Positions 3,709-64,000 of a DNA stretch of 64,000 nucleotides are shown piece after piece. The notes beneath the pieces were generated by a model. That model had not been told where the DNA came from and did no database searches. It saw nothing but the letters and a program-made list of their open reading frames with translations. The stretch is taken from positions 3,066,707 to 3,130,706 of the forward strand of contig NC_136205.1 in NCBI RefSeq assembly GCF_015852565.1, given 5' to 3'. Source of the stretch: Branchiostoma floridae. Lineage: Eukaryota. Made by a program: the position numbers and the translations under genes. Position 1 is the stretch's first letter. Every line of letters starts with the position of its first letter.

Positions 3709-3953
3709 GGAAAGTATAGCAAAAAAACGTTTTGATTGGATTTCATTAAACAATAAACAAAGCGAGTTAGCAATAACTATAATTGAATAAAAAGATTACC
3801 AAACGACAAATCCTAAATTAATGCCATGGTAAAGTGTAATCTTCAGACAAGATTAGCTCGGTGTCTGTGTAAGCTAAAAGGTACAAACTAAGACACTTCT
3901 TTCATTTCTCACATGGTTTTTACGGTGTGGAAATTAAATGTGACTTTCCTTAC

Positions 3954-4064
3954 CTTCGCAATTGCCCCCACGGTATCCCACTGGGCATGCGCAGTTATAA
4001 CCATTCAACAGGTCCTCACAAGAGCCGCCATTTTGACAAGGGTTCGAAACACATTCGTCTATTT
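3954..4064 (-). CDS. Calcium-binding EGF exon ([37 protein letters not shown])
   Basis: D-x-D-E-C cbEGF motif. The exon is 111 nt and flanked by cttac|...|ctg. Confidence 0.7.
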
Positions 4065-4163
4065 CTGCAAAACGGAAATAACAAATTAGAATATTCAGCA
4101 AAAATGGCAGAAATACTAAATTATGACCGAATCTAGGTCTGACAAAAATAACATTCTCCTCAC

Positions 4164-4277
4164 CTTCTTCACATGCATCTCCTCTGAATCCTTCTGGGCA
4201 TGCGCAGGTGAATAAGTTGACGTCATCATAACATGTGCCCCCATTCTGACACGGACTGGACTGGCACTCATCAACGT
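4164..4277 (-). CDS. Calcium-binding EGF exon ([37 protein letters not shown])
   Basis: 114-nt phase-1 exon with the cbEGF motif. Confidence 0.75.
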
Positions 4278-4404
4278 CTGTAAAGGTCAAAGTTCAACAC
4301 AAATAGTTATCACGCACTATATGTATTGTTGGTCACAGAACGGGTTAGTAGTACATAACTTTAGGTTAGAAAATGACATTTTTTTAGCTTTATTACTGTA
4401 CTAC

Positions 4405-15133: not shown

Positions 15134-16931
15134 GAATAGGGTTAAACGCTGAAGGAAGTGTTTTTTATCAATAGATGATATATCAATGAATACATAACCA
15201 TTGGCAAAATTTCACTTATAAGATATGTTTTAAGTTTTTAAGTAAAAAAAAAACCCAGTCGTATAGGAAAACACACTGGGAATCATAAATGCAATCCCTG
15301 TTTTCTGAGATTGAATCATAAAAGTAATAAATATAGCATGATTAAACTATCAGACAAAGTAGTTAATATATGGAGAAATAACATTATTTTAAATTATAGA
15401 GGTACACATTGTATAGATAGTACTGTACACATAGTACTGTACGTAACTTAGCAACACACAATGTTTGCGAAAAAAACCTTCCAAATTGAAAAAAATGACG
15501 TTATTCTGATGTGTGTTTAAGTGCACTCTCGTTCTAAGAGCCAACACTTTCTCTCTCTTAAAGTATTATCAAAAATACATTTTCTACACTTTCTCTTCTT
15601 CAGAGAATGCTCTATGTGATTTCCCCTCTTAACCTATTTCCATGTCAGATATTTCTGGCCAAAACTCAAAACAGAAGAGCACAGTGATTCAAGACTCCAT
15701 TGTGCAAAACATTTGATATCGCCGCCATTGTAAAAAATCAAGGCCCCCTAGCCCCCACACTCGAGTGCTCTTGTAGATAAACACGTGATGAGATCCGGCT
15801 CTAACAATACAACATCGAAAACCTAATATGCCACTTGACCAATAAGCATCGCCCTTATAGAGACAAGACGCCACCTTTTGGCAAGAGGATTATGATAGAG
15901 AGCCCTCCATAGGTCAATTAGCCATTCCATGTTGTTGCTAAGCAACCAGCAATTACGTCTGTTGTCACTGACATGATCGAAGGAATCGATAAAAAACTAC
16001 GCTTTATTCGGGTTGAAGTTGTCAGTTTTTCCATAGTTATTTGTTTCTATACTACTGCCAGGAGAATTGTTTTCATTTTGAAACTACACAATGGTCCAAA
16101 AAGGATGTTTTTTTGATAAGTAAAGTGCTTGTAAAAATATAACTAGCTCAATAAATGTTGAGTCGTGCCCTTTTCGTAGTCATGTCATTAATACTCTGCC
16201 AACGATGCTGTTGATTGTTCTAGACGTCGTTTCTACGTGGTTTTATATTACCAACATGCGTCTCTTTAACGTGGTAATATCGCTGTAGATGAGATGGAAA
16301 ACAATCAAAAACAGGATTCTGACAAACTTGAAAAGGGTTATCAATTACAGGACAAACGCAGTGCTAAAACACTGTAACCATCACATAGCCGAACATGGCC
16401 TTCCGACCTTCGCTAGACCACTGTTGATAGTCGTGAGCAAGGTCATTTGTGATTGGGAGATGGTCTGGAGATCGTCTTGTATAAAAATAAGTTTTTTCGT
16501 CGTATGCACCAGCCGTTCGTGTGCAATATACTTTGAAAAAGAAAAGTCGGAAAATTCATATTCTGCTTGTATACTGTTAGAGGATCGAACTGTATCTAGA
16601 AAGACTGGATCCAAGTATACTTTCAAAAAAGAACTAAATACTTTTTTTTTACATGAAATCGAAACGAAATACCTTGCCATCAGGTCTTACATTTGAATAC
16701 ATATTTATTTGCAATAATACAGAAATAGCTAAGTTTACTCATGAGCCATTATTGTTGTTTAGTAAATAAAATCTTCAGGTCTAATTTGCATTTCTCTATG
16801 GTATTTTGAACTGAATTGACCAAACGAAAGTTTCCGTACTTTTGTTGAGTCAATATCAATAAACCGTCACTGTGATACAAAGTTTTTCGTACTACCAAAA
16901 TGTATTGTTGAGCCAAATGTGCATAGTGCTA

Positions 16932-17511
16932 CGAGGGGCGTTCAAGAAGTAATCCACCTGACCCATTTCCCAAAGGAGGAGATTAATGAAACTTGGTGCA
17001 GTTATTAGTCTTTCTCTTCATAGGAATCACCCAGAGTTATGCATTTCTACCATCGTTTGATGCAGCTCTGTACACCGTTTTTGTAGGACGCCCCAGGTTG
17101 GTCCTGCAACAGATGCCTCATCAATGGCAGAAGAGGGACGACCAGGTCTGGGAGCTGTTTCCACAGACTTCCGGCCATGTTTGAATTCACAATGCCAGCG
17201 TTTTACAAGGTCATATGATGGGGAATCATCACCATAAGTTTCTTTTATTTCATCAAAAGTCTCATTTGGTGTGCGTCCTTTCAAATACAAAAACCGGATC
17301 ACTGCGCGACACTCAACTGGCTTCATTTCACACCTGGTCCATTTCACACCTGACTCAGTTCAAACACCTTTAAATCAAAAACCAAAATTAGTTCAGAGCT
17401 GTTTTTTGCAACATAACCCATAGAGATATGAATCATTACATATGCAAAATTTCATCTAGATCAGACAACTGGAAGTGGGTCAGGTGGATTACTTCTTGAA
17501 CGCCCCTCGAT
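16932..17511 (-). mobile_element. Internally deleted mariner-like element (~580 bp) with ~38-bp TIRs and a remnant transposase N-terminal HTH ORF
   Basis: The TIRs are cgaggggcgttcaagaagtaatccacctgacccatttcc and its reverse complement at 17473-17511. ORF 17027-17347 (…CRAVIRFLYLKGRTPNETFDEIKETYGDDSPSYDLVKRWHCEFKHGRKSVETAPRPGRP) resembles the Mos1/Himar HTH. TA dinucleotides flank the element. Confidence 0.8.
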
Positions 17512-30789: not shown

Positions 30790-31019
30790 GTAGGAATATT
30801 CTAAATGAGAAACGAACTCTTCTCCAACTCCAAAGTATTGAATTTTTGTCTGAATAACTCAGTCGTCTTAATCTGGAGAGAATCTCATTTTCATTTACAA
30901 CTGTCTTGAGAAGCAAGAAGAAGTTGAACCTTTACATACTAGACTAAGTATACTTTAGACTTTGTTGTCTTAGTTTTATATCACATCCTTACACACATTG
31001 CACTTAGAATCCCTAGGAA

Positions 31020-32600
31020 CTGCATTCTATTCACCTTGTTTCCAATGACATAATTTCCGAAAACCAACATGCGTATAGAAAATCACACTCTACAGCTAGT
31101 GCCCTTATACAAATGTCTGACTACTGGTTGGGGGAGATAGATAAAGGGAATTTGATTGGCGCCGTTATGCTAGATTTTAGCGCGGCATTTGATGTCATTA
31201 ACCACGATATTTGTTTAGCCAAGCTTAAGAGCTATGGTTTTGAGGAATCTGCAATCAAGTGGGTACAGAGTTATCTTGGCAACAGGAAACAAGCTGTATT
31301 CGTTAACGGTAGTTTTTCCTCATATAAAGAATCCAGGTGCGGCGTTCCCCAAGGCAGCTGCCTGGGTCCATTGCTTTTCTCTATATTTGTCAATGATCTC
31401 CCCGCATTTACAAATAGTATAGTAGTCATGTACGCTGATGATTCAACGCCCTCAGCATCGGCTCCCACTGTCGCGAAATTGAAATACAAATTGCAGACTG
31501 ACTTGGAGCGAATCTGGAATTGGGTACAAACTAATCATCTTGTTCTCAATATTGGAAAAACTAAATCAATCATGATGGGTACGCAACAAAAACTAAAACG
31601 TAATCCCAAATTAGAACTAAGAATAGATGGAACAGACATTACACATGTAGAACAGGCTGAACTGTTAGGTCTCACTATAGACCAACGTCTCACATGGGGA
31701 TCGCATATTGACAAAACGAAGAATAAAATGGCAGGCATACTAGCCACAATAAGACGACACAGGAAGTACTTCACAAAAAGTATATTGAGATCTGTTATTC
31801 AGGCTCTGGTTTTGTCACACATTGACTACGGCTCAGTGCTGCTATCCTCTGCACCACAGACACACATAGATGGTCTTCAGGTGGTCCAGAATCGCGCTGC
31901 TCGCCTGGCCACAAACAAGCCCTTTGACACCAACCTGGAAGACCTACACATGCAGTTAAAGTGGCAAACCGTTAAAGAAAGACTCTTCACAAATACTGTA
32001 TGTACATTCCACAAAATTGTTAAGGAAAGGCAACCCCAATGCATCTTCAAGCAATTACAAACAATTCAATCCACACATGAGCATCACACGAGGCTGTCTA
32101 CTAGAGGAGCATTCACTCAATCAAAACCCAAAACAAACGCTAAAACAAGGACATTTGGCTACAGATGCATCAAAACCTATAACACATTGCCAAACACAAC
32201 GACATCATACAACAACATTGAGTTCAAATCTAGGATAAAAGAGCTTGCGAAAACACGAGACAAAAGACAACCCCTGAGCACATGGTGGTAATGATTTTTA
32301 TATTTCAGTATATCTAAGTTATATATTTATGTTGTGTTATTAGTACACTTTTGATTGGATTGTGTTTCAATCAATTAAGTTAACTTCTTCTGCTATTCAT
32401 TATTTGTTATGTATGATCACTTCTTTATTTTGACCTCTGACCTCTGCTTATTATTTTGCTTATTATTTTACGCTAATTATCCGCTTTTGATGTTAAGTTG
32501 TTTCTTTTTCATTTCATGTATTTTATTTATTCTTATTATTATGACTCCAGGAAGAGTAGTGGCATGATTTTATGATGTACACTAATGGAGATCGCAACAA
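31020..32600 (+). mobile_element. 5'-truncated non-LTR (LINE) retrotransposon fragment with a reverse-transcriptase ORF, lying in the PARP4 intron between exons 13 and 14
   Basis: ORF 31113-32291 carries RT motifs: AVMLDFSAAFDVINHD, CGVPQGSCLGPLLF, YADD, and a thumb-like C-terminus. Confidence 0.8.
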
Positions 32601-43785: not shown

Positions 43786-44187
43786 AATAAAGTGCTTGAT
43801 GGACAGATCACAGAAAAGGCCATTGAACACAGCTTGGAGTTCTACACCACTGCAGTGGAGACTGCAAAAAGGGAGCTTCCCCCAACCCATCCAACAGTGT
43901 TGCAGTCACAGCTCTCTTTGGCAATGTTTTATCACAACAAATTGAATATGCAGGACAAGGCCTGCCTGGTTGCAAAGGCTGCCTTTGACGATGCGATCGC
44001 GGAGTTGGATACTCTGAGCAAGGAAAGCTACAAGGACTCGACCTTGGTGATGCAGCAGTTGAGAGACAACTTGACATTGTGGTCTGCTGAGGACGGGGAA
44101 GAAGAGAAAAAAGCCAACGAAAAGAAAAAGGTCCTTATTCCTAGTGTCAACCATAGCTCACTTTGGCTAATCAACCTTCTCGGATGA
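43786..44187 (+). CDS. Intact ORF encoding a 14-3-3 protein C-terminal half (helices 7-9, including 14-3-3 signature 2). It is embedded between PARP4 exons 29 and 30. Its status is unresolved: it could be an exonized module, a nested-gene exon or a young pseudogene fragment.
   Basis: [109 protein letters not shown]. Compare 14-3-3 epsilon [42 protein letters not shown]...[41 protein letters not shown]. The frame is open from the tttctag| acceptor-like site at 43785 to the TGA at 44185. It is not in phase with the exon-29 donor when obvious splice sites are used. Confidence 0.5.
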
Positions 44188-44194
44188 AGCCCAT

Positions 44195-44575
44195 CTTACA
44201 TACCCAACCATGGCCTCGCGACCTTCTCCAGACCATGGTTGGGAGTTAAGCCCCTGTCACACATAGCCGACCATGCCCTCCCAACCTTCTTCAGACCATG
44301 GTCAGGAGTTAAGCCCTTGTCTTACATACCTGACCATGGCCTCCCAACCTTCTCCAGACCATGGTCAGGAGTTAAGCCCTTGTCTTACATACCTGACCAT
44401 GGCCTCCCAACCTTCTCCAGACCATGGTCAGGAGTTAAGCCCTTGTCTTACATACCTGACCATGGCCTCCCAACCTTCTCCAGACCATGGTTGGGAGTTA
44501 AGCCCGTCTTACATACCCAACCATGGCCTCGCGACCTTCTCCAGACCATGGTTGGGAGTGAGACCATCAGTAATT
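44195..44575. repeat. Tandem array (~6 copies) of a 63-bp (3n) unit with internal palindromes (catacctgaccatgg…ccatggtcagg). It is open in two reading frames.
   Basis: ccatggtcaggagttaagcccttgtcttacatacctgaccatggcctcccaaccttctccaga repeated. ORFs 44239-44613 and 44273-44632 are open only because of the 3n periodicity. Confidence 0.7.
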
Positions 44576-46133: not shown

Positions 46134-46398
46134 GTAGGATGGCAGGTGAGATGGTAGAGTACTGTAAATCTTGAGATGCATGGTTTTCATGGTGACATCT
46201 CCACCATGATACAATCGCCATACAAACAGCCCGGCTGGGCCCTGGGTTATAGAAATGTGACTTAGTCCTTACTGTTACCTAGTTTAATAAAAGAGACAAC
46301 GAAAAAGAACTGCAGTCAAAAATCATACTTTTGACACTTTTTGTTGGGCTCCGTTTTTCAAAGACACTAACTCTTGAATCTTTCTATTTCTTCAACAG

Positions 46399-48751
46399 CT
46401 GCTGATGAAAAAGAGGGTTCTCCTCTTGCTGATACTTATCAGATGAAGGCTAATGCCTTGCAATTGGAAAAAGGTCGATTTGCATCTCCCATGAGGTCTA
46501 GATCAAGGTCAAGGTCAGATAAACATTCCTCTCCAGCATACAGCCCGACATCTCCAGCATATAGCCCAGCATCTCCAGCATATAGCCCGACTTCACCTAC
46601 TGAGGAAGCCACAGAGGCTGAGTACACAAAGCCTAAACCTCTAGCTCGGAAAATGGCACCAAAACGGGTCGAAAAGGAGAAGGCACCAAGCCCACACTTC
46701 TCAAAGATGTCTGCAACGTTCTTGACCCGAGAATCTGAAAGGGGAAAGTCCTCATACAGAGTGTCAGATGAAGTTCAGGCTCGTGTAGATCGCCTTGATG
46801 ATCTAGTAGAAAAAGCTGATGCTCTTAGTGCACAAGCTGCAATATTTGGTGCTTCAACAACCATTTCTAAAGATGATGGCCTCTTTGCCGGTTCAACAGA
46901 GGCAAGTGTGCAGAAACCTAAACCTTTTGAATCCAAGCCAGGTATCGTTCAACCTGCCAGATTTACTTATGAAGCAACACCAGATACTACCAAGGGTCTT
47001 TTTGGCAGAAAGGCTGAACCAGAGACTGCAGGGTTTGCTCTTGCCCAGTCTGTGGCCGCAGAAGAGCCAGCTCCTGCTTTTGGTTTTGGAGCTCCAGTTG
47101 CAAGCTTTGGTGCAGAAACTTATGGAACTCGTGGTGTAGACTTGGATGCACCCATACCGTATGGCAAAATCCCAGTTGGTGGAACGCCGTTTGGTGAAAC
47201 GCCAGTTAGTGGAAAGCCGTTTGGTGAATCTGCTGTAAAGTTTGGAGGTCCTCCTGGCACTGTAGCTGGCACAAAGACGCAAGAGACTGCATTTGGTCAG
47301 GGTTTTGGTTATGCTTCAAGTCGTGGTGTAGGCTTTGGTAAAGCAACATTTGGTGAAGCAACATATGGCACACCATTTGGTGGAACACCATTTGCTGCAA
47401 CCACAGGTCTTTTTGCCCACTCAACTGCACCAAAGGATCAGGAAGCTGTGTCATTTGGTTTTGCTCCCTCTACTGACCAGAGCACAAGGGGTGGTGGAGG
47501 ATCCGCAGGTGGTTTTAGCTTTGGTTGGACTGCATCATCAGATTTGGGACAGAGGGATCGAGACAGGAGCTCCCCCCTAATTGGTGACACAAAAAAAGGA
47601 TTCAAGTTTGGAGCCTCACTTGAAGAGAAAGAAGAAACAGCAAGCTTTAGCTTTGGTGGATCCAGCCAGAAAGTGGTTCCTCAAGCAGGTTTTGGAGCTG
47701 ATCAACAGATGCAGCAGCAACAACAGCAACAACAACAACAGGCTCAGATGAATGTCTCTGATACTGCTCCTCAGAGGAAGATGCGAAGCAGGCTTCATGG
47801 CGCTATAGCTACCTTAAGTGAATCCAGTCAAGCAGAAATGGTTCCTGAAGCAGGTTTTATCTCCAATCAACGGATGCAGCAGCAACAGGCTCAGATGGAT
47901 GTTCTTCTTACTGCTCCTCCGAGGACAGGTGGTGGAAGGGTTCATGGCGCTTTAACTAGATTAGACGAATCCAGTCAAGCAAAAGTGGTTCCTCAAGCAC
48001 GTGTTGGCTCTCGAGCTCCTCAAAAAGCGAGGAAGACAACTGGCGGCAAGGCTGTTAGAGTTTCTTCAGGATTCAAGGACAGCTTGGACATCGTAGACAA
48101 GAGTTCACGCGACACTGGTGACTCTTGGAGAGCTGTCAAACGGACCGAGACCCCCATGGCTGGTTATTTTGACATGAGGGCCATGTCCCCTGCCTCAACA
48201 AATTCTGCACAGTCAGTTGCTTTTCAACAGCTGTCAGCATCTGCTGCCTTTCTACAGGCACCCCCTCCTGCGCCACCCCCTTGTTCAACAGGCCCCCCTC
48301 CTCTTCCACCCCGCTGCCCAGCAGGACCCCCTCCTCCAGCTGGTGCCCCTCCCCCACCACCACCACCCCCTAAGGGCATTCAGCTTCTTAAACCAAGAGC
48401 AAGTTTAAAGTCCAAAGCAGTAATGGCAGCACCCATGCGTGCACTATCCATGCCCTCGAAAGAATATGCCCCATTGCCCCCTCCTCCTCCAAGTTCAGTC
48501 GAACAGGCACCAGAGCTACCAGCATGGGATAGAGAAGAAGAACTGCAAATGGGGATTGTTGAAGAAAGCCGTGCAATTGCTTCGTATGAACAGATGGAAG
48601 AGTTAAAACCATTGTCAAGAAGTTTGGAATTGAGACAAAAGAAGAAAAAGAAACAGTTCGAAATCCAGGCAAGGTTGGAGGAAGAAAAGGTATCATTGGA
48701 CAAAGTCATGTACATGGATGAAAGCGTTCAAGAAGGAGAGGAAATGTACAG
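46399..48751 (+). CDS. PARP4: PARP4 giant low-complexity exon 32 (784 codons) with five modules: SPAYSPT CTD-like heptads, FG/GF repeats, polyQ, an FH1-like polyproline run and a basic KKKKKQFEIQARLEEEK tail
   Basis: Single ORF 46374-48755. The acceptor ttcaacag|CT at 46398 is in phase with exon 31. The donor ATGTACAG|gtaaga at 48751 is in phase with exon 33. The position corresponds to the Pro/Ser-rich disordered region of human PARP4. Confidence 0.65.
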
Positions 48752-49442
48752 GTAAGAGTGAAGTCAACAAAGTACAGTCTCTACCTAATTAGATGAATGT
48801 GAAATTTTCCACAAATCGGGGGAATATTTTATCTGAGAGCTTGCAATTGCCTGGTTAATGTAGTACAGGCTTGTCCGCTGAAGATTGTAACTTGTAACTG
48901 TAGCCCTTTGGCCAATTTCTACTGATTTTTCACATAAACCACAGTCTCATAGGGACTAAATGAAATGTTTGATTTATGTAATTGTGGCAAACATGTTGCC
49001 TACCTGAGCTTTTCAAAGGAAAAATGTAAAGTTTCAATAAAGTTAACGTAAATTACTTTCAAGGACCAATTTAGGGACTATTCTTGACAATTGAACTACA
49101 TGTAAATCCAAGGTTACACAAAGCTTACCATAAAAGTGTACAACTTGTGATAACAGTCATTATTTTCCACATAAAGCAGTGTTCAAGTTTGTGGGCACGG
49201 GTCAATGGTATGCAAATGTATTGTGTCGTCTTAACTTTATTCTTTAAAGTAGGGGTTCTTTGCATTGAGCAATTTCATGATATTCATACAATGCCACATC
49301 GTTGTAAACACCACAGAAGACAGTATCTCTTTTGTTTAGTATTTTTGTTTGATGTCAGCCTGTTGTTACATGATTGTGTATAATTATGCCTTTGTCATCT
49401 TGTTCATGACTTTTGTAACATGTATTACAAACTTTATTTCAG

Positions 49443-53440: not shown

Positions 53441-54929
53441 TATCTTTGTGTGAATGGCCAGCTATGTGTAGCAGTATGGTTGTTGTAACCATACACTAAC
53501 CTTGTTTGAATGGGTCATGGTTTGTTATGGTTTTGGTGTGTGTGTGCGAAATAGTGGTTTGATCATTACTACAATGGTCTAATCTGATTTTGTACCCCTC
53601 AAAACATGGAGACACCAGAATAATTATTTTTGTAGCAGGTGTGGTTACAGTGATATTGACAAAAACAAGATTTTCTGTAAAACTGCCAAAATGGTGGTGT
53701 GATCATTACAAACATGGATTAATCTGGTTATTTATCCTTCGAAACATGGGGATAGACACCAAAATCAATTTGATACCATGTGAAGTTACTGAGATATTGA
53801 CAAAAAGAAGACTTTTCTTAATAAGTTAATGGCCGCCCTACTTTGCATATTGTGCGTATTGCCTAATGATGACAGAATGGCATAATCCAGATTCTTATAG
53901 AGCACACCTCAGAGGCATAGAAACATCAAAAGAACTTTGTATGAATTACATTGCAAGGTTATGTAAAAATATGGGGTTTGGCAACCAAACTAAGTCTTGT
54001 GTGGTAAGTATCAATGTGGTCGCTATGTTCATGTTGTAACAAAGACATTATAAAATGAAGGTATTGAAGTCAAAAGGCCAGTAACATTCTGTGCATAGTA
54101 AGAAAACAGTTTGTAATATATAGTTGTCAGGCACATGGCAGTATTGTATATCAGTAATAGTATCAAAATGACACAATGAAGAACTGGTAACCTTTAGCGC
54201 AAAACACCTGATCATCTGTAACACTGGACACACAACCATATAAATACAGTGTAGGTCCTAGTCATGACTTCCACTGGCACAATTTAAAGCCACCCTTCAT
54301 TCCAGATATCACATGACATCCCAACCATTTACCCAACATAAATATCAAATCCTATGATAAACATTTACACCAAAACAAGGTACAAACACACACAACCATA
54401 CAACATCGCAATACATCATCGCATATGACTATCAGTACAATAGACAACAAAAACAAGGGTATACATAATCTACAAAAAAAAACATACACATACCACTCTC
54501 TTACGCTAACACACTATCTCCTTCTCCTCCACCTTAGAAACTCGTCTCTTCTTGCGTTTCCCCATGATGACCAAACACGCTCATAACCTCGTATCACAAG
54601 TATAGAGGCTTGTACAGGACTGAAAGCAACACTTTAGCCTTCAGCACCACAACTTATACCTGACCAATCAATACAGCAGCAGATTAAACCAACCTACAAG
54701 CACTCTTAGAACAGAAGCCACTGATGTGATTTGTAACAACAGCACAGCCTGCTGTGACCACAAGCAAGCAGACCTACATGTACTAGTATCATCTGTTTCT
54801 TAGGAACAAATCCACTGCAGGATATCTAAAATTAGACCTGTCACTCAAACAGCCACACAAACCGTCATCTGGGTTCACAACCAAGCAGATATGAGTAGAC
54901 CTGCCCCAACCAAAAAAAAAACAGCATCA

Positions 54930-55530
54930 GCCTACAGTGTCAAGTTCAAGCACTAGGAGGCCCAAAATCAAACCTGACCACCAGGACACAAGCAACAATC
55001 CACGTAACAAATAGCAACACAATGGCACCTTGCGTTCCGGAGATACAGCGCACGCGCCGTGCCCGCAGAAAAGGTAACCTGGAATGTCAAGTTCAAGCAC
55101 CAAGGGCGCCAAAATCAAAATTGAGAATTATTCAGCCACCACCAACACATGTGCCAAATATCATTGCGCCCGCACCAACCGTTCAGAAGATATAACTCCG
55201 GAAAACCCCCTCCCCGACACAAAATTCGACCTGCCGCGTCAGGTTCAAACGCGACAAGGCCCAAAGTCAATCCTAGGCAACAAGCAACAACTCCCCACCC
55301 ATGCACCGAAAATCGTCGCAATGGCGCGTATCGTTCCGGACACACAGCGCCAAAAGTGCCCCAAAAAACACAAAAAATGCCACCTTCAATATTAAGTTCA
55401 AGCACCAGGAGGCCCAAAATCAAACCTGAGTGTCAAGCTAACACCCCCAACCCACGTACCAAAAATCGTCGTGCTCGCACCATCCGTTCTCGAGATACAG
55501 CGCCCTAAATCCCCAGCTTCCAAAAGTTCC
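54930..55530. repeat. ~150-160-bp tandem (satellite-like) repeat, ~3.5 copies
   Basis: Units start caagttcaagcac(c/t)a(g/a)g(a/g)ggcccaaaatcaaa and contain ccgttc(c/a)g(g/a)agata(c/t)a. Confidence 0.6.
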
Positions 55531-57316
55531 CACGCCCCTGAAAACCATACCTGCATACATGCAGGTAATTACACAAACATAAATACCCACATACACATAC
55601 ATGTACACACATAATTACACACTGTCAGACACATATAAATACATACACGCGCATACAAGCACTCACATGTAGGATGCAGACAATACCTACATTTGCATAC
55701 ATTATTAAGAATGGTCTGGAGCCTGCCCAAACTGGTTCTTCTGCATGTTTCCTTGTTTATCGCATTTGTGTCCAACCCACCAAACTGGGCGTCTCGGTAC
55801 AACGGTACAACATCTGCTGTATCTAGCTAATAATAACAAGACAGAAGACTTTTGGCTCATCAACCTAAAGACGGTATGTGGTCTTTGAATTCTATAGCTA
55901 TCACTTTTGTGTCTTACATTGGCGGCAAATACGACCAAGTTGTCGTAAGACGTTGAAACTCTTTAATGCTTCTCATTGTGTATATGTCCTCACACACCAG
56001 CAACGATTTTCCAACAACCTGCCTCAACCGTAATCATGCACGTTAGGGTTTTTGCCTTGCCGCCAGGCAAGGCTTTACGCCAGCTTTTTTCCATGGATCA
56101 ATGGACGGACCTTTTAACCCAGCCCTTCCAAAGCCCCTTCCAAAGGCCCTTCTTTCCTTGCCGAGTTTCATGGCTTAGTTAGACAATGGTACATTCCAGA
56201 CGAGTATTAAAACGCTCTTCTAGACGCATGTTACTGTATGTGGTCCAGCGTAATAAATCTACGCTTTAACTCACCATGTTCATATAAATATATATCACAA
56301 ATTGCATCAGAAGGAACTTAGTTTGTAATAAAAAATAATGCATATTCATTGTGGGTCAAAAAGTTTTACAAAACCTGTTTAATGTGCCAATAATTCATCT
56401 GACATAAATTATGATAATGAGGGGGAGGGGGGCGACATGTGGAACTCGGGATTTTTAAGCGTAGAATCTAGTCTAACTTACCAAAATAACATAAAATACG
56501 CGGCAAGGCACAGCTTTTTTAAAAAGATTTCTTGTTTGACAGCAGACCTTTTTCGTCTAGTAGTACGTTTCGGCACAGGTAATCCCGACTTAGAGATGGA
56601 GGGGGTAGAATGGTGATCCCGTTCTTGAGGAGAGTCACACATGTGCACATCGAGTACCTTTAAGGGCCCCACAACATGGAAATTGGTAAGCTAATAAGGG
56701 TTACTTGGGTGAGCGTAAGCAGTTCATAACCTTTATAATCTTAAATGAATTATCGACATCCTCGCAAATCAACCTTTGGCTTCAAATAGAGAGTAGTACT
56801 CAATGGCAGGCTCGATCTCATTCAAATGTGCAACATGTAGCGATTTAGTTTAGAAAAAATACACCAGCTTATGTTGAATAGATAACGTCGAAAGAATTGA
56901 ACAATGCTATAGTTGGCTACAGAAATTATTGACCATTATAGTAAAACATTTTACGGAAAGTATACTAGAAATGACTCAAACAGTCCTATGAAATCATAAG
57001 GTTCATTCAAATGCTTAGGTACCTCTGTTCCTTAGAAAGTCAGATAAACTGTACCGACTCACAATAAAGCTTTAACGTTAAACAGAGTACAAGAACAAGA
57101 ACAGTTACTGATCTAATCTGATCCTTGGACTTGCAACTGATCTGTGCTTAGGTGCACACGAGCAACTGCGCAGATGCCTGCTTTACACACGGTCAGACGT
57201 CATCTTGTCAACAATGGACACGAACCTGCTTAGGTTTGAAAAACGTCATCTTGTCAGCAATGGACACGAACCTGCTTAGGTTTGAAAGATGACATTTGGA
57301 ATATTTCCTGTTCTAG

Positions 57317-58738: not shown

Positions 58739-60017
58739 TAGTCACGTTGTTTTCAGTTCATCTTCCTCTCATGGTTTAATTTTACACATTTTACAATTTC
58801 AACAAATTTACACAGACATTCCTATATGCAACAACATTAGAAGATATACCAATACAAAAACGAGAAGTCACAAATATAAGCGCATCAAATGTACATAAAA
58901 GAAGTCTTACATAGACATACCGCCATCTTAGGACATTTATATAGTCACAAAACAGCAGATGTCGTCATTCTTACAAATACAACAGCTTTCCACATACCTA
59001 AACATGAGAACATATATCACAATACACACAAAAAAGAAGAAAATTGATGGTGGACGTGCAACATAAAAATCAAAAACAGATTCAGTGATGGACTCCAGTG
59101 ATTCCACTGTACGTTGTAGAAACTTTTGATTACCGAATAAAGCTTTGAAGAAATACAGTTTGTAACGCTATACGGTTAACAGAAAACCTTATTATCAAGG
59201 TATAGATTTAAACAACTTGGGAGCTATAGTCTAAAATAAGCTTTTTTTTCAAGTGTTGGCACCATATATGTACATTTATACTTAGGTGTGTTGAGTTTGG
59301 TTCTTGCCCTGAATTGTATGTGACCTTTTTTTAAATTTGAAAAGATGAAGCAAGACCAGAAAACCAAAACATTAACTTAGTTTTGCCTAAAATGTACAAA
59401 ACAGGAACTAGAATATATTTTACACATATCGAATAGCTATGCAACTTGGGTGTATATGTATATGAAAAATGATTATTCTTCAATGTTTTTTTAATGGAAA
59501 CTTAAGTTTCACTGCCTTTGATCTACTTATATCTAATGATATCACTAATTTGAATTTCTCATTTGTACTGAAATATAGGCTTGGTGTATTGTGCGTGTAT
59601 GAAAGTTTAAAAGATGTTCTCTTAAACCTTAATATATCTTAATGGCTCAGACTTCAAGAAAATGACTTAGGTTCCTGCCCTGAGTTGCTTTCCTCCACAT
59701 CTACCCACACTGTATTTACTCCCTCATTTTGAACAATTCCTTTCCAGTTGTAACATTCATCTAGACTAACGTTTTGAACACCTAAATAAACCATCACCAA
59801 CACTCTTTAGTTTATTTACACTAATTTTAACTCTGTAAAGATTGTTAGATAGACTTACATTGCTTTCCATGGTCATATGTAAATCATCATTGGGTTTTTA
59901 GCACTTTTATGTACACTATGTAGACTAAAGCAAGCTTATACTGGGCATTTTTCTTCTGTATTCCATTGTCCATCTTGGAATATGGAACTGGCCAGTAGAC
60001 CGATCCTCACAACTGCT

Positions 60018-61244
60018 TTAAAGTCCAAATACGTGTAGGAAGTTTTTATTCGATTCCTCCCAGTACTTCGAATCCAGCAGTTTCTGCTTGAGCCGTTGAG
60101 CAACCTTGAACTCCGTGCTTCTATTCTTCAATATCTGCACAATGCGCGTTTTTAGCCTTGCCACGTCTTCGTGGTCATCGCCACTGATCTCCACAATCGG
60201 GTGCGTGAAATCCAAGTCACCGTCAATCTTATATTGGGCCTTCAAGAACTCTGCAAGCCCCGACTTGCTGGAAACGACCGTAGGGACACCCGCAGCGATG
60301 GCCTCGAGGCCAACCAGTCCGAATGGCTCTGCACGTGACGGCATCAGAACAACATCTGCCCTTCCCATCTCTTCGCACAGCTCTTCCTGTGTGCAATACT
60401 CCAGAGGGGTGAAGGGAACAAACTCAAATTTACCTTTGTTGGCGTTGATGATCTCCTGTGTTTTTTCAAAATCCCCTTTCTTGATGCCACACAGTCGCCA
60501 CTTCGTGTTGGGTAGTTCCTCGATCACATCTCCCATGCTCCGTGCTGAAAGATCGTAGCCTTTCAACCTCTCCACACCCTTGACCCTACCGATGGACAGC
60601 ACCACTCTTGTGTCGGTCTCCGCGGGTGGTTCCATATTGGCCTTGCTGAATATGTCGGACGGTTTAGGCAAAAACTGGATCCGTTTTAGTTGTTTGACTT
60701 GCTTTGTCTGATGCGTGTAGTAGTCGTGCAACCTTGGACCTACTGAGACGACAACACTTGCATCTTTAAGGTCATCCAGAATGCTCGCATGCTCCTTTGC
60801 TATCTCCTGCACTCTCTCTGTACTTTTGTAGTGGCTCGTGTTTTCAGGGATGACGTGTGTGACTTGGGCGAGTTTGGCGTCAGGAAGGCGGTCCTCCTTG
60901 ATTCGTTTTGCTGCGCGGCTTGTGATGTTAACGTGACCGACGATGAAGTCTACATCTTCCGGTAAGTGTGGATAATAAGTCAGATGTTGCCGGGTCAGCC
61001 ACTTAAGGTTTGGGGTTTCGTCGTCATCTTCGGTTCTTGGAAAGATCAGCTGAACCCCATCAGCAGCTGCATCATCCTTGTCCTTCTGGTTGGCCTGTAA
61101 GACTGTGCTGTAGACCTTTGCCCCTTTCAAAGCCAGAAAGCGCGCCGTCTGGCGGTGGATAGTGGATATGCCCCCTTTGGAGGTCCCATACTCATCGTTG
61201 AGCATCAACACCACGGGCTTTCCCCCTTTAAACAGCAAATGCAC
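60018..61244 (-). CDS. Intronless 408-codon GT-B fold, family GT4-like glycosyltransferase ORF (E-x7-E motif EPFGLVGLEAIAAGVPTV). It has no ATG at its N-terminus, so it is possibly a terminal exon.
   Basis: The uninterrupted ORF has N-terminal PVVLMLNDEYGTSKGGISTIHRQTARFLALKGAKV (Gly-rich loop) and C-terminal VVLMPSRAEPFGLVGLEAIAAGVPTVVSSKSGLAEFL. Its first codon in the track is GTG. An AG acceptor (…tttgctgtttaaag|GGGGAAAGCCC) lies 18 nt into the ORF. Confidence 0.7.
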   Translation of the reverse strand: MHLLFKGGKPVVLMLNDEYGTSKGGISTIHRQTARFLALKGAKVYSTVLQANQKDKDDAAADGVQLIFPRTEDDDETPNLKWLTRQHLTYYPHLPEDVDFIVGHVNITSRAAKRIKEDRLPDAKLAQVTHVIPENTSHYKSTERVQEIAKEHASILDDLKDASVVVSVGPRLHDYYTHQTKQVKQLKRIQFLPKPSDIFSKANMEPPAETDTRVVLSIGRVKGVERLKGYDLSARSMGDVIEELPNTKWRLCGIKKGDFEKTQEIINANKGKFEFVPFTPLEYCTQEELCEEMGRADVVLMPSRAEPFGLVGLEAIAAGVPTVVSSKSGLAEFLKAQYKIDGDLDFTHPIVEISGDDHEDVARLKTRIVQILKNRSTEFKVAQRLKQKLLDSKYWEESNKNFLHVFGL

Positions 61245-61799
61245 ATAGTTTTTTCAAAGTTGCAGATAGACTGTTGATATCATTAAAAGTAGTAAAATAT
61301 GATTGCATGATCTTGGGCCTCCATCCATAGCTAAAGATATAGTTAAAGGTGTTGATATTTTAGGATGTACACTTAGCTATTGTCCTCGTGTTCGATACAA
61401 GTGCAGCATTTTGTCGATTAGGTTATACCTGGCAACTTCCTCATCATTTTCAGTTTTTCTAAGGTAGCACAACGTACAATTATATGCATTCAGTTCACTT
61501 TAGGAAATAAAACATGTGAGCCAGATTTGCCTTGTCCACTTCTGTACACTTCGGGGCTACCTGTGTGTTAGCTGGTCTCAGTTTTCTGTCCAAACAATGC
61601 TGCAGTGTAATGCACAATGTAGATCCTGTATGCTCGACGTATGGGGCAATTGACTTGTTTTTGTTTTTTTAAACATGGTACTGGTACTGTTATAATGCAG
61701 CAAAGTACTAGTACTATTTTAATGACCCAATTTACAGCTGTCGTCCACAAGTCCCATAGACTTTTGTTGCTTTGGACTGGAAAATGTATAAATCCTCAC

Positions 61800-61892
61800 C
61801 TTCTTTCCGAGAGGCAGGTGCTGTTGCCCCTGCCGGGCCACTATGGAGATTGGTGTTAGAATCGTCTGGCTCAGCACCCATCTCAGGTACAC
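61800..61892 (-). CDS. Low-complexity linker exon of the ZU5 gene (VPEMGAEPDDSNTNLHSGPAGATAPASRKE). It ends in phase 1.
   Basis: aactacag|…GAAG|gtgagg. It resembles the previous exon, and the intron just downstream of each (plus-strand coordinates) carries the same catagacttttgttgctttggactgg motif. This is a local exon-intron duplication. Confidence 0.45.
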
Positions 61893-62045
61893 CTGTAGTT
61901 TAAGGGTCAAATAGTTGATGTAATATCGAGTGCTTTATTTCAAAGTCTAAAGACTTTATACAAATGAAACATAATCAGAACCATATACGTGTATTTGGAT
62001 ATATGCGTATTTGGTAAAATGAAATGAAATGAAATGGATTCTCAC

Positions 62046-62135
62046 CTGGGTTACTGGTTTCAGTTGGTACATGGCCAGACCCAACTTTATTTGGGGATGT
62101 CTCAGGACGGTGGTCATTGGTCCGGTTACCATTAC
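62046..62135 (-). CDS. Low-complexity linker exon of the ZU5 gene (GNGNRTNDHRPETSPNKVGSGHVPTETSNP)
   Basis: ttggtag|…|gtgaga, 90 nt. Confidence 0.45.
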
Positions 62136-62549
62136 CTACCAAGCACGAAGAAAAACAACATAGCAATTAGACCCGGTGATATGTTAAGACGTATATGAAG
62201 ATATAACTTCAGGTGTGCAAAAGTCAAAATATAACCAAATTAAAGGCCCTCGTCAGTAATTCTCATAGACTTTCGTTGCCTTGGACTGGTAAATTATATA
62301 CTGTACGTGGTTTCTATTTATTCGGAATTAGCCTCTCAAAGTGTCGCAGAATTCCATAAAACTACATCTAGATCACTTATTTGACATCTGAACAAAATCA
62401 AAGCAACAGTACCATTGTTAAATAACAATTATAACAATTCGGCATAACAATTACAAAAATTCGGCATCACAGAATGAAGGGACATTTTGTATTCCTAGAC
62501 TTTTATAGAAATAATTACATGACTTTTGCAAAGAGAAAAATGTACTCAC

Positions 62550-62580
62550 TAGAAGTGTTAGGAATTCGATCTTGGCGTTC
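62550..62580 (-). CDS. 31-nt micro-exon of the ZU5 gene (ERQDRIPNTS)
   Basis: tctttcag|GAACGCCAAGATCGAATTCCTAACACTTCTAG|gtgagta. Confidence 0.35.
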
Positions 62581-62825
62581 CTGAAAGAGAAAAAAAGCAC
62601 GCCGGGAACTTTATTTTGGGGACATCGCAATACCATAATAATGGCTAATTGTAGCATGATGATCTACTAAATCGTACATCAAGTAGACGTGTTTGATATT
62701 ACACCATAATATTTGGTCATATGATTCTAAAGCTACATTTTGTTTGTACTATGGTTTTAATCCGGTATTTGGGTAAGCTTTGCTTTAGAATAAAGCATTT
62801 TCGGTTATATCTTAGACGCTCTTAC

Positions 62826-63742
62826 CTCCCGAAACGTGAACCTGCATACAACCCGAGGTTCTTGCTCTTGAATAGTTGTGATGATGACTTCACCCTTAAG
62901 ATGTTTTCCGTTCGGCCTATCCAGGAGCATTTGAACAGTCTGTCCGTGCTCTTCGCGACAGAGCTGGGCACATAGCTCTATTGTCTGAGATTCTTTTTGG
63001 CCTTCTTTGATACTGACAACAACTTCAATATCATTCCTTTGAAACAGATCGAACATTGCTTTGTTGCTTCCACACATGGTGAAGCCAGGAAGGTAATAAT
63101 CTTTTTCAACACTCTTGTCCCTACACACAACATGGAAATCTACGTCTACTTCATGTGGCTTGATGTGTGCGGAAAACCGACAATTTAAAGTTCTTAACGA
63201 CAGAACGTATGCCATGCTCTGTCCTACATGTACACCCGTTTCAATTTGCTGCAGCTGCTGCTCGGTCCACAGCACACACAGGGGACAGAAGGCTTGCAGA
63301 GATATGGACAGTTTGTCCGGATGTATCTGATGTGGGGTTGAAGCTGTGATATCTGCCCAGCCATGTCCATCGAAATGCTTCAGCAGAACACATTCCATGC
63401 CTTCAGTACCCGGAGGTCTCCATGTCTCTAGCTCAATTGGTCCACTCAGCTGTGCGCCGTGTAGGTTGACATCGACAGCCGGGGAGAACAGCACCTGATC
63501 CAGCAGCTCGCGTGGACAGGCCTCCTCACATAGAGACCAAGGGTAGCCAGAGATCCAGCTGAAGCCTTCGTCACCTCTCAAAATATCGGGAATGTCTACA
63601 GTAGAAACTGTAATTGTTGTGTCTCTCTGAAGGACGCCTGATGGCACACAAAGTTTGGCAAAACCGGAAATCTCAATCTCCCCACCCGATGGTCCTACAA
63701 ACGCCTTTGCAGTCTTTGTGTGATGTAGCTCTTGCAGTATTC
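62826..63742 (-). CDS. Large exon encoding a ZU5 domain followed by a UPA-like region (UNC5/PIDD/ankyrin-type)
   Basis: ttttag|GILQELHHTKTAKAFVGPSGGEIEISGFAKLCVPSGVLQRDTTITVSTVD…LFSPAVDVNLHGAQLSGPIELETW… has the ZU5 consensus (A-x-F-D-x-x-GG-x-L…G-V-x-L-x-IP-x-GA…SP-x-V-x-x-GP-x-G-x-x-F-x-x-P-V-E-L). The donor is G|gtaaga at 62825. Confidence 0.65.
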
Positions 63743-64000
63743 CTAAAATAAGTCAAAGGCATATTAGATTTGATACGTGCAAAATACAAATTTTGTTCAA
63801 ATATGTTTTACGTAAATCACCTGGCTGTCTTTCCAGTGCATAATACAGTTTGAAAGGAAAGTAATCTAGGGCGAGAAAAAACAGTACATTGGTTGTAGAA
63901 AAAAGTATGCTATACTCGATTCGAATTCTCTGTTGCGTACACACGCTCTGCTTGCAGTAAGAACTTGGTGTGTGTTGATGAAATTCAAACAAACCTGCAA

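Follow-up and report, generated by a model that had tools for sequence, protein, structure and literature searches.

Introduction

In UNC5, PIDD1, and the ankyrins, a supramodule of a ZU5 and a UPA domain precedes a Death domain (PDB entries 3g5b and 4d8o) and is itself preceded by Ig/TSP, LRR, or membrane-binding ankyrin repeats. A comparable succession of a ZU5-like and a UPA half makes up the FIIND of NLRP1 and CARD8, behind which a CARD is located. Here, we examine a locus at which the place of the Death domain is taken by an enzyme: Within a 64,000-nucleotide stretch of Branchiostoma floridae DNA (assembly GCF_015852565.1, contig NC_136205.1, positions 3,066,707 to 3,130,706; in the following "the window", the positions of which are used throughout), the minus strand encodes a divergent ZU5-UPA-like module and, downstream of it, a GT4 glycosyltransferase. 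We assign a probability of about 0.8 to the reading that the window contains the five 3′-terminal exons of a single protein-coding gene, LOC144867384, the product of which comprises TPR repeats of the TPR_12/NPHP3 type, a DED-like helical region, the ZU5-UPA module, and, separated from it by ~70 residues of disordered linker, GT4 as the C-terminal domain, and which would represent a putative immune effector from a shuffled, lineage-specific family.

The glycosyltransferase part of this architecture has a described counterpart in the metazoan GT4 "conflict-system" expansion reported by Kaur, Iyer, Burroughs, and Aravind (2021, eLife 10:e70394, PMC8195603). According to that study, the clade is nearest to the effectors of bacterial conflict systems, was laterally acquired, and is expanded in corals, hemichordates, and amphioxus; its members are fused to variable immune and apoptosis domains and are predicted to glycosylate molecules of the invader or the host. 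The source data of its Figure 6 list the architectures ZU5+ZU5+GT4 (XP_015748402.1), RVT+DEATH+ZU5+ZU5+GT4, and DED+TPR+GT4 in Acropora and Exaiptasia as well as DED+GT4 and sGTP+GT4 in B. floridae. The gene analyzed here belongs to this known invertebrate immune-gene expansion: Its GT4 domain falls into the same clade and is likewise placed as the terminal predicted effector behind variable adaptors. In other respects the two differ. The amphioxus entries compared here from the tables of Kaur et al. are given without a ZU5 or UPA call, XP_002601934.1, which is FIIND-containing according to UniProt, appearing there as "GT4", whereas the ZU5-UPA module of the window is divergent, amphioxus-specific, and below the Pfam thresholds. 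Moreover, their main text stresses the combination of GT4 with TRADD-N, a domain that is not present in the Pfam scan of the protein discussed below.

Results and Discussion

Exon Structure and Gene Model

When the minus strand of the region 59500–64000 was joined by script, five exons were found to share one open frame, with AG/GT sites at all splice junctions. Exon A (62826–63742, 917 nucleotides, entered in phase 1 and left in phase 0) encodes the ZU5-UPA-like module; its acceptor reads ...tattttag|GAATACTGC, the two leading bases completing a codon, and its donor reads GGGAG|gtaagag. Three linker exons follow, in all of which the acceptor AG lies in a pyrimidine-rich context and the donor reads |gtgag: mini-exon B (62550–62580, 31 nucleotides, phase 0 to 1), which encodes ERQDRIPNTS, the low-complexity exon C (62046–62135, 90 nucleotides, phase 1 to 1), and exon D (61800–61892, 93 nucleotides, phase 1 to 1), which ends in ...ASRKE + G. 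The terminal exon E (60018–61225), again entered in phase 1, encodes the entire GT4-conflict glycosyltransferase domain and closes with the stop codon TAA at 60020–60018; an AATAAA hexamer at 59811–59816, ~200 nucleotides past the stop codon, is a likely polyadenylation signal. A first-pass annotation made from the letters of the window had proposed a 917-nucleotide exon followed by three small linker exons, the last of which ends in phase 1, and all of these were recovered at the positions it had given.

The same annotation had described a 408-codon glycosyltransferase frame with a GTG start, a late first ATG, and an acceptor in phase with the last linker, and in these points, too, it proved accurate. 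The frame as listed extends over 60018–61244 and is open only from 61253. As the lone AG in its open part is located at 61227–61226, exon E starts at 61225, and the junction of exons D and E is in frame (...ASRKE-G-GKPVVLMLNDEYGT, which reads ASRKE-G-GKPVVLML). The first in-frame ATG corresponds to codon 14 and lies within VVLMLNDEYGT, the conserved first β-strand that is common to all homologs; consequently, the glycosyltransferase frame cannot stand alone as written.

The spliced product of the window (778 residues) is identical, residue for residue, to residues 309–1086 of XP_078585414.1 (P0127 in our protein set), the 1086-residue "uncharacterized protein LOC144867384" of Branchiostoma floridae x Branchiostoma japonicum, from which it follows that RefSeq uses exactly the junctions that the first-pass annotation had proposed. 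Exon A represents residues 308–613 of this protein and matched it in the exhaustive representative search with 100% identity over all 306 residues, exons C and D are both found in it, and exon E represents its residues 685–1086. The claim that the ZU5-UPA exon is spliced via three linkers into the GT4 exon within a single gene is supported by this 778-residue identity as well as by the recurrence of the arrangement in relatives (see below). The window does not encode the first 307 residues of XP_078585414.1, in which some five repeats of the TPR_12/TPR_10 type and a weak match to DED are found, and the Pfam architecture of the complete protein is TPR + weak DED + GT4. The intron upstream of exon A (63743–64000) extends to the end of the window, beyond which the exons for residues 1–307 with the TPR repeats and the DED-like region are located; the N-terminal 309 residues yielded no significant tblastn match within the 64 kb.

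Domain Assignment

The assignment of exon E as a GT4 glycosyltransferase is strong: It matches the Pfam profile GT4-conflict (PF20706) over positions 1–382 of 385 with an E-value of 3e-77 and 260.6 bits at a cut-off of 26, and the full protein XP_078585414.1 scores 256.8 bits. The E-x7-E motif of the nucleotide-sugar-binding subdomain, as read from the sequence, is intact (EPFGLVGLE, 60303–60329, minus strand), and this stretch aligns to the GlgA, BshA, and sucrose-phosphate synthase chains in the PDB. Within the closest GT4 subfamily, the domain always starts with G-[SG]-x-K-P-V-V-L directly after the junction, irrespective of what lies before it, and the GT4 paralogs carry Death, DED, CARD, OTU, LRR, Ank, or FIIND. 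The closest paralog of the glycosyltransferase domain that was retrieved by the word-indexed protein search is 78% identical (P0001, XP_078604150.1).

For exon A, the picture obtained from sequence comparison is different from that obtained by structure prediction. The Pfam profile ZU5 (PF00791) is matched with an E-value of 0.16 and 12.7 bits, which is below the 21-bit cut-off, the Pfam profile UPA (PF17217) gave no match, and no ZU5 protein was matched when the PDB was searched with exon A, either as a single sequence or as a 16-sequence profile. Subthreshold ZU5 matches of 17–19 bits occur at the same position in six paralogs. Moreover, the central pattern FSPAVDVNLHGAQL..P.EL of exon A resembles the pattern typical of ZU5 domains. 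An AlphaFold model of exon A, built on the 16-sequence alignment, has a mean predicted local distance difference test (pLDDT) value of 70.7, with low-confidence loops at residues 50–85 and 161–183; its UPA half is best predicted, reaching pLDDT values of ~80–95 per 10-residue block. In a fold search by Foldseek, this model was matched best to the ZU5-ZU5-UPA-DD structure of ankyrin-B (4d8o, E-value 3e-11), the other leading matches including 6m3q (6e-11), AnkB/G, UNC5b (3g5b, 2e-8), and ankyrin ZU5A-ZU5B, and the alignments to ZU5-UPA structures extend over ~330 columns. A match to the FIIND of rat NLRP1 (7crv_D) was obtained with an E-value of 5e-3.

Taken together, the model supports a ZU5-UPA fold for exon A, which would represent a divergent, amphioxus-specific subfamily below the Pfam thresholds. 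The ZU5-like half would correspond to residues ~9–160 (63264–63719, minus strand), as delimited by the AlphaFold strands, the subthreshold Pfam ZU5 match, and the Foldseek alignments to ankyrin ZU5 and to the ZU5 part of the NLRP1 FIIND, and the UPA-like half to residues ~184–306 (62826–63194, minus strand), as delimited by pLDDT and the Foldseek alignments. Because neither Pfam nor the sequence and profile searches of the PDB gave a significant match, this assignment was derived from structure prediction. The "clear ZU5 domain plus UPA-like region" of the first-pass annotation is hence upheld with respect to the fold, whereas "clear" does not apply to the sequence. In comparison with the ZU5-UPA-Death proteins UNC5, PIDD1, and the ankyrins, the predicted fold of exon A matches over both domains; the differences are that the Pfam signatures of ZU5 and UPA are below threshold here and that a GT4 enzyme is found in place of the Death domain.

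Relatives and Exchange of the Terminal Exon

To put the locus into context, we took a census of the module-bearing proteins. The module is followed by GT4 in P0127, P0131 with its four isoforms, P0133, P0134, P0135, P0136, P0029, and P0014/P0125; among the proteins of the hybrid assembly, XP_078583816.1 and XP_078583244.1 combine a ZU5-UPA-like module with GT4. In terms of cluster representatives from amphioxus, the module precedes GT4 in at least six others and a Death domain in ~14. The module-GT4 forms begin with TPR, ankyrin repeats, or RING-Roc-COR, which distinguishes the amphioxus family from UNC5, PIDD1, and the ankyrins with their other N-terminal partners. Architecture in related species agrees with that of the window, the transition from module to GT4 recurring in B. 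lanceolatum, B. belcheri, and other genes of the hybrid assembly. Four of these proteins were compared with the window: CAH1251072.1 (P0131, "ANK1") and CAH1249856.1 (P0136, "TRIM3") from B. lanceolatum as well as XP_019634235.1 (P0134) and KAI8487113.1 (P0135) from B. belcheri. They share with the window the ZU5-UPA-like subfamily at 55–60% identity, the GT4 subfamily at ~60% identity, and the layout of a linker followed by GT4, while their N-termini consist of ankyrin repeats or RING-Roc-COR instead of TPR. At this level of identity, a paralogous relationship seems likelier than one-to-one orthology.

The exon structure is preserved at the B. belcheri locus L002, which contains an intact ZU5-UPA exon (16376–17283) and a GT4 exon starting from ~18003. 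Between the two lie a 19-nucleotide mini-exon (GAATGCAACATTTTGACAA|gtgagt, phase 0 to 1) and a linker exon of phase 1 to 1, and the resulting phase chain is the same as in the window. Only the exons of the two loci can be aligned, at ~68% nucleotide identity, a level at which synonymous sites are saturated. The Gnomon model XP_019641873.1 joins the ZU5 and the GT4 exons at this locus.

A second B. belcheri locus, L001, encodes a ZU5-UPA-Death paralog (P0121, 59% identical). Its UPA exon ends in phase 0 (...CAAGAG|gtaaga) and is succeeded by a 19-nucleotide mini-exon (GAAGATGATATCACACCAA|gtaagt, phase 0 to 1), after which comes the Death exon with an entry phase of 1. Mini-exon B of the window therefore has homologous 19-nucleotide mini-exons at both L002 and L001, with the same phases and with |gtgagt or |gtaagt donors. 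Since Death and GT4 follow the same phase 0-to-1 mini-exon and are both entered in phase 1, this indicates that they are interchangeable phase-1 terminal cassette exons and that exon shuffling put GT4 into the position of the Death domain, which in turn accounts for its presence at a site usually taken by the latter.

A further amphioxus protein in which GT4 is preceded by a related type of module is UniProt entry C3YP55 (P0088), which has the architecture FIIND+GT4. We considered whether exon A belongs to the same subfamily as the FIIND of C3YP55 and rejected this, as BLASTP found no similarity; the two ZU5-UPA-type modules that are fused to GT4 in amphioxus are consequently of different subfamilies. 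The second one is a classical FIIND, and P0001 starts with what appears to be the UPA tail of a FIIND (MFEDTFDKNKFYEPFEVKV...; compare LEFDDTFDTGQYYKKFRVEV in P0088). This suggests that GT4 was joined to ZU5-UPA-type modules at least twice.

Alternative Explanations

Several observations weigh against the reading of the locus as one gene with an effector function. The protein evidence for the fusion is entirely made up of computationally predicted gene models (XP_ and CAH records), stand-alone GT4 paralogs of ~400 residues occur, and an internal promoter could give rise to a GT4-only isoform. When the glycosyltransferase domain was used as the query, the word-indexed protein search did not list the identical XP_078585414.1, its best match being the 78%-identical paralog mentioned above; as the identical RefSeq protein was missed, a negative from that search alone would wrongly suggest an unannotated gene. 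Some of the related models are themselves irregular: XP_078583244.1 starts at a methionine within the UPA region and looks partial, and XP_019641873.1 uses an internal donor (CCAC|gtgagt, L002 16590–16610) within the ZU5 exon, thereby skipping most of ZU5-UPA and still arriving in phase 1. At the corresponding position the window has CCACGCGAG, which renders this shortcut isoform unavailable here. Finally, we know of no member of the metazoan GT4-conflict clade with a known biochemical function or substrate.

Alternatively, the locus could be divided into two genes, with the ZU5-UPA gene ending after the linkers, a stand-alone GT4 gene having its own promoter and a small ATG exon in the ~573-bp gap, and the RefSeq fusion being a read-through or merging artefact. 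Such a division would fit the computational nature of the models and the many family members that consist of a stand-alone GT4 with a short leader peptide, and the gap does contain mini-exon candidates with an ATG and a phase-1 GT, for example ATGATGAGGAAGTTGCCAG|gtataa at 61447–61429. However, there are twelve such candidates in 573 bp, which is a chance-level number, and none of them is supported; the ATG exon of its own that the first-pass annotation had envisaged for the glycosyltransferase frame is hence a matter on which the intron is uninformative. Additionally, the exons of a ZU5-UPA gene ending with exon D would lack an in-frame stop codon, the phase chain of 0 to 1, 1, and 1 into the glycosyltransferase exon is kept at L002 despite fully diverged introns, and the module is joined to GT4 in at least seven independent gene models, which come from three species and two hybrid assemblies. 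The exon junctions of the single gene are thus supported by gene models in conjunction with comparative evidence, and we consider the division into two genes unlikely. Still more improbable is an ordinary ZU5-UPA-Death gene in which splicing bypasses the glycosyltransferase frame, the latter being nested or unrelated, and reaches a Death exon further downstream. It is true that the ZU5-UPA-Death proteins P0121 (59%), P0128, and P0142 are among those most similar in sequence to exon A. Yet tblastn and phmmer searches of the window with all family proteins, ~30 of which bear Death, DED, or CARD, revealed exons A and E only, so that the Death exon downstream of 60018 considered in the first-pass annotation was not detected, nor was any other Death-, DED-, or CARD-like exon in the 64 kb. 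Moreover, genes on the plus strand at ~43.8–48.8 kb leave little room for such an exon, and the RefSeq model ends in GT4. A third reading sees in the locus a recently shuffled copy that is non-functional or unexpressed and on its way to becoming a pseudogene: The family has very many members that evolve fast and turn over rapidly, the best glycosyltransferase paralog is only 78% identical, several related models are truncated, and the putative nucleophile of the self-cleavage site discussed below is a cysteine and not the commoner serine. Against this stand five open exons with intact splice sites, the presence of the residues in which the ZU5-UPA-like family does not vary, and a GT4 domain that matches its profile from end to end (1–382 of 385) and retains the E-x7-E motif; we hold a decaying copy to be improbable as well, somewhat more so than two separate genes and less so than the Death-domain arrangement. 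A single functional gene therefore remains our preferred reading.

A Candidate FIIND-like Self-Cleavage Site

The module of exon A contains a feature that is reminiscent of the FIIND: The codons TTC TGT at 63285–63290 (minus strand) encode Phe152-Cys153 (exon numbering) within an x-F-[S/C]-P motif that is shared across the family and located where ZU5 and UPA meet, which makes this position a candidate self-cleavage site. In the paralog alignment, the motif of the window reads SISLQAF|CPLCVLW (A-F-C-P), most paralogs having S/T-F-S-P, and a histidine ~30 residues upstream (His123, LLKH) is invariant in 16 of 16 sequences. In the AlphaFold model, the motif sits between the strands formed by residues 144–149 and 155–160. 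The FIIND alignment in the supplement of Kaur et al. contains the row ...VAHF...ENPSF|SPLGVLL (PMC8195603). In an hhalign comparison with 13 FIIND rows from that alignment, the best path sets H123 and F152-C153 on VAH and SF|S, respectively, at a level that is not significant (E-value 0.09, probability 0.6%). The Pfam profile FIIND (PF13553) gave no match to exon A at an E-value ≤ 1. Self-cleavage of NLRP1 needs H1186 and S1213, 27 residues apart, which are the histidine of "VAH" and the serine of "SFS" in the row given above.

The apparent likeness to the FIIND of NLRP1 and CARD8 lies in the topology, with a ZU5-like half, an x-F-S/C-P motif between strands, a UPA half, a linker, and, at the C-terminus, an effector or adaptor, in the Foldseek match to rat NLRP1, and in the invariant upstream histidine, which aligns with the "VAH" histidine of the FIIND without statistical support. 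The two differ in the nucleophile position, which is a cysteine here and a serine there, and in the domain that would be released, which would be an enzyme here and is a CARD there. On this basis we tentatively propose, while regarding it as rather doubtful, that the module could act as a FIIND-like self-cleaving switch that is cut at Phe152|Cys153 and releases an effector fragment composed of UPA, linker, and GT4. In such a mechanism, the two halves would be held together non-covalently after the cut, and pathogen-triggered destruction of the N-terminal part with TPR, DED, and ZU5 would free the UPA-linker-GT4 fragment; the Death and the GT4 paralogs would then be alternative outputs of one sensing chassis.

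Proposed Function and Relation to Described Architectures

We infer that the protein would act inside the cell, in innate immunity or cell death. Sensing or scaffolding would be the task of the TPR, Ank, or Roc-COR region and regulation that of the ZU5-UPA module, while GT4 would serve as an effector that uses a nucleotide-sugar donor to glycosylate a target of the pathogen or the host. The proposal of GT4 as an effector follows Kaur et al. (2021), who proposed this role for the GT4 clade. Within the large family of amphioxus and hemichordates, the single-exon, phase-1 GT4 cassette has been shuffled behind Death, DED, CARD, OTU, LRR, Ank, FIIND, and ZU5-UPA.

As a claim of discovery, the locus carries little weight, for RefSeq already has the gene, and catalogues of this combination of domains date back to 2021. 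The first-pass annotation had held a ZU5-UPA module leading into a glycosyltransferase to be an architecture that is not described, and this did not withstand the comparison: The exact gene model is already in RefSeq, C3YP55 combines FIIND with GT4, and the ZU5+ZU5+GT4 architecture is among those listed by Kaur et al. Its suggestion to look for the co-occurrence of ZU5 and a glycosyltransferase in protein databases was productive, GT4 proteins with ZU5 or a related ZU5-UPA-type module being found in RefSeq, in UniProt, and in the source data of that study. In the literature searched, we found neither the amphioxus ZU5-UPA-like subfamily nor the exchange of Death and GT4 exons nor the conserved F-[S/C] motif, and no paper later than Kaur et al. 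on metazoan GT4-conflict fusions surfaced there. The value of the locus lies in its being a clean example of how the innate-immune repertoire of amphioxus is built, with bacterial-type GT4 and Death exons that are swappable behind one ZU5-UPA chassis. If self-cleavage at F-[S/C] were true, the protein would be a "functional degradation" sensor that deploys a glycosyltransferase instead of a CARD or Death adaptor, and the family could be used to test whether the release mechanism of NLRP1 and CARD8 deploys an enzymatic effector.

Other Features of the Window

Beyond the gene discussed so far, the window contains several other coding and repetitive elements. On the minus strand, several pieces of open reading frames between 2669 and 10163 carry EGF and calcium-binding EGF repeats (Pfam EGF, E-value 2e-17 at 3937–4293) and are probably exons of a multi-EGF gene. 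Two elements point to transposons: an open reading frame at 17030–17359 (minus strand) with the HTH_48 domain of Mos1/mariner-type transposases (E-value 2e-9), which we regard as a DNA-transposon remnant, and a 424-codon open reading frame at 31017–32288 (plus strand) for a reverse transcriptase (Pfam RVT_1, E-value 6e-22), which is probably a fragment of a non-LTR (long terminal repeat) retrotransposon between genes.

An exon for the C-terminal half of a 14-3-3 protein (PF00244, E-value 2e-30) occupies positions 43786–44184 of the plus strand and is thus oriented against the ZU5-GT4 gene. Directly past it, at 44194–44559, lies a tandem repeat with a 63-bp unit, 5.8 copies, and 91% matches, which is open in two frames and consists of PDHGLPTFSRPWSGVKPLSYI-type repeats. 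The 794-codon open frame at 46371–48752 (plus strand) has no Pfam match and encodes a long Gly/Phe-rich (FG-like) stretch; it also includes a 21-bp repeat, present three times, the encoded peptide of which (SPAYSPT) recalls the heptad of the C-terminal domain of RNA polymerase II. Finally, the stretch 54001–56000 exhibits a strong compositional strand asymmetry unlike the remaining window (GC skew −0.27, AT skew +0.23); an open frame at 55125–55505, which is repetitive and rich in proline and arginine, overlaps with it.

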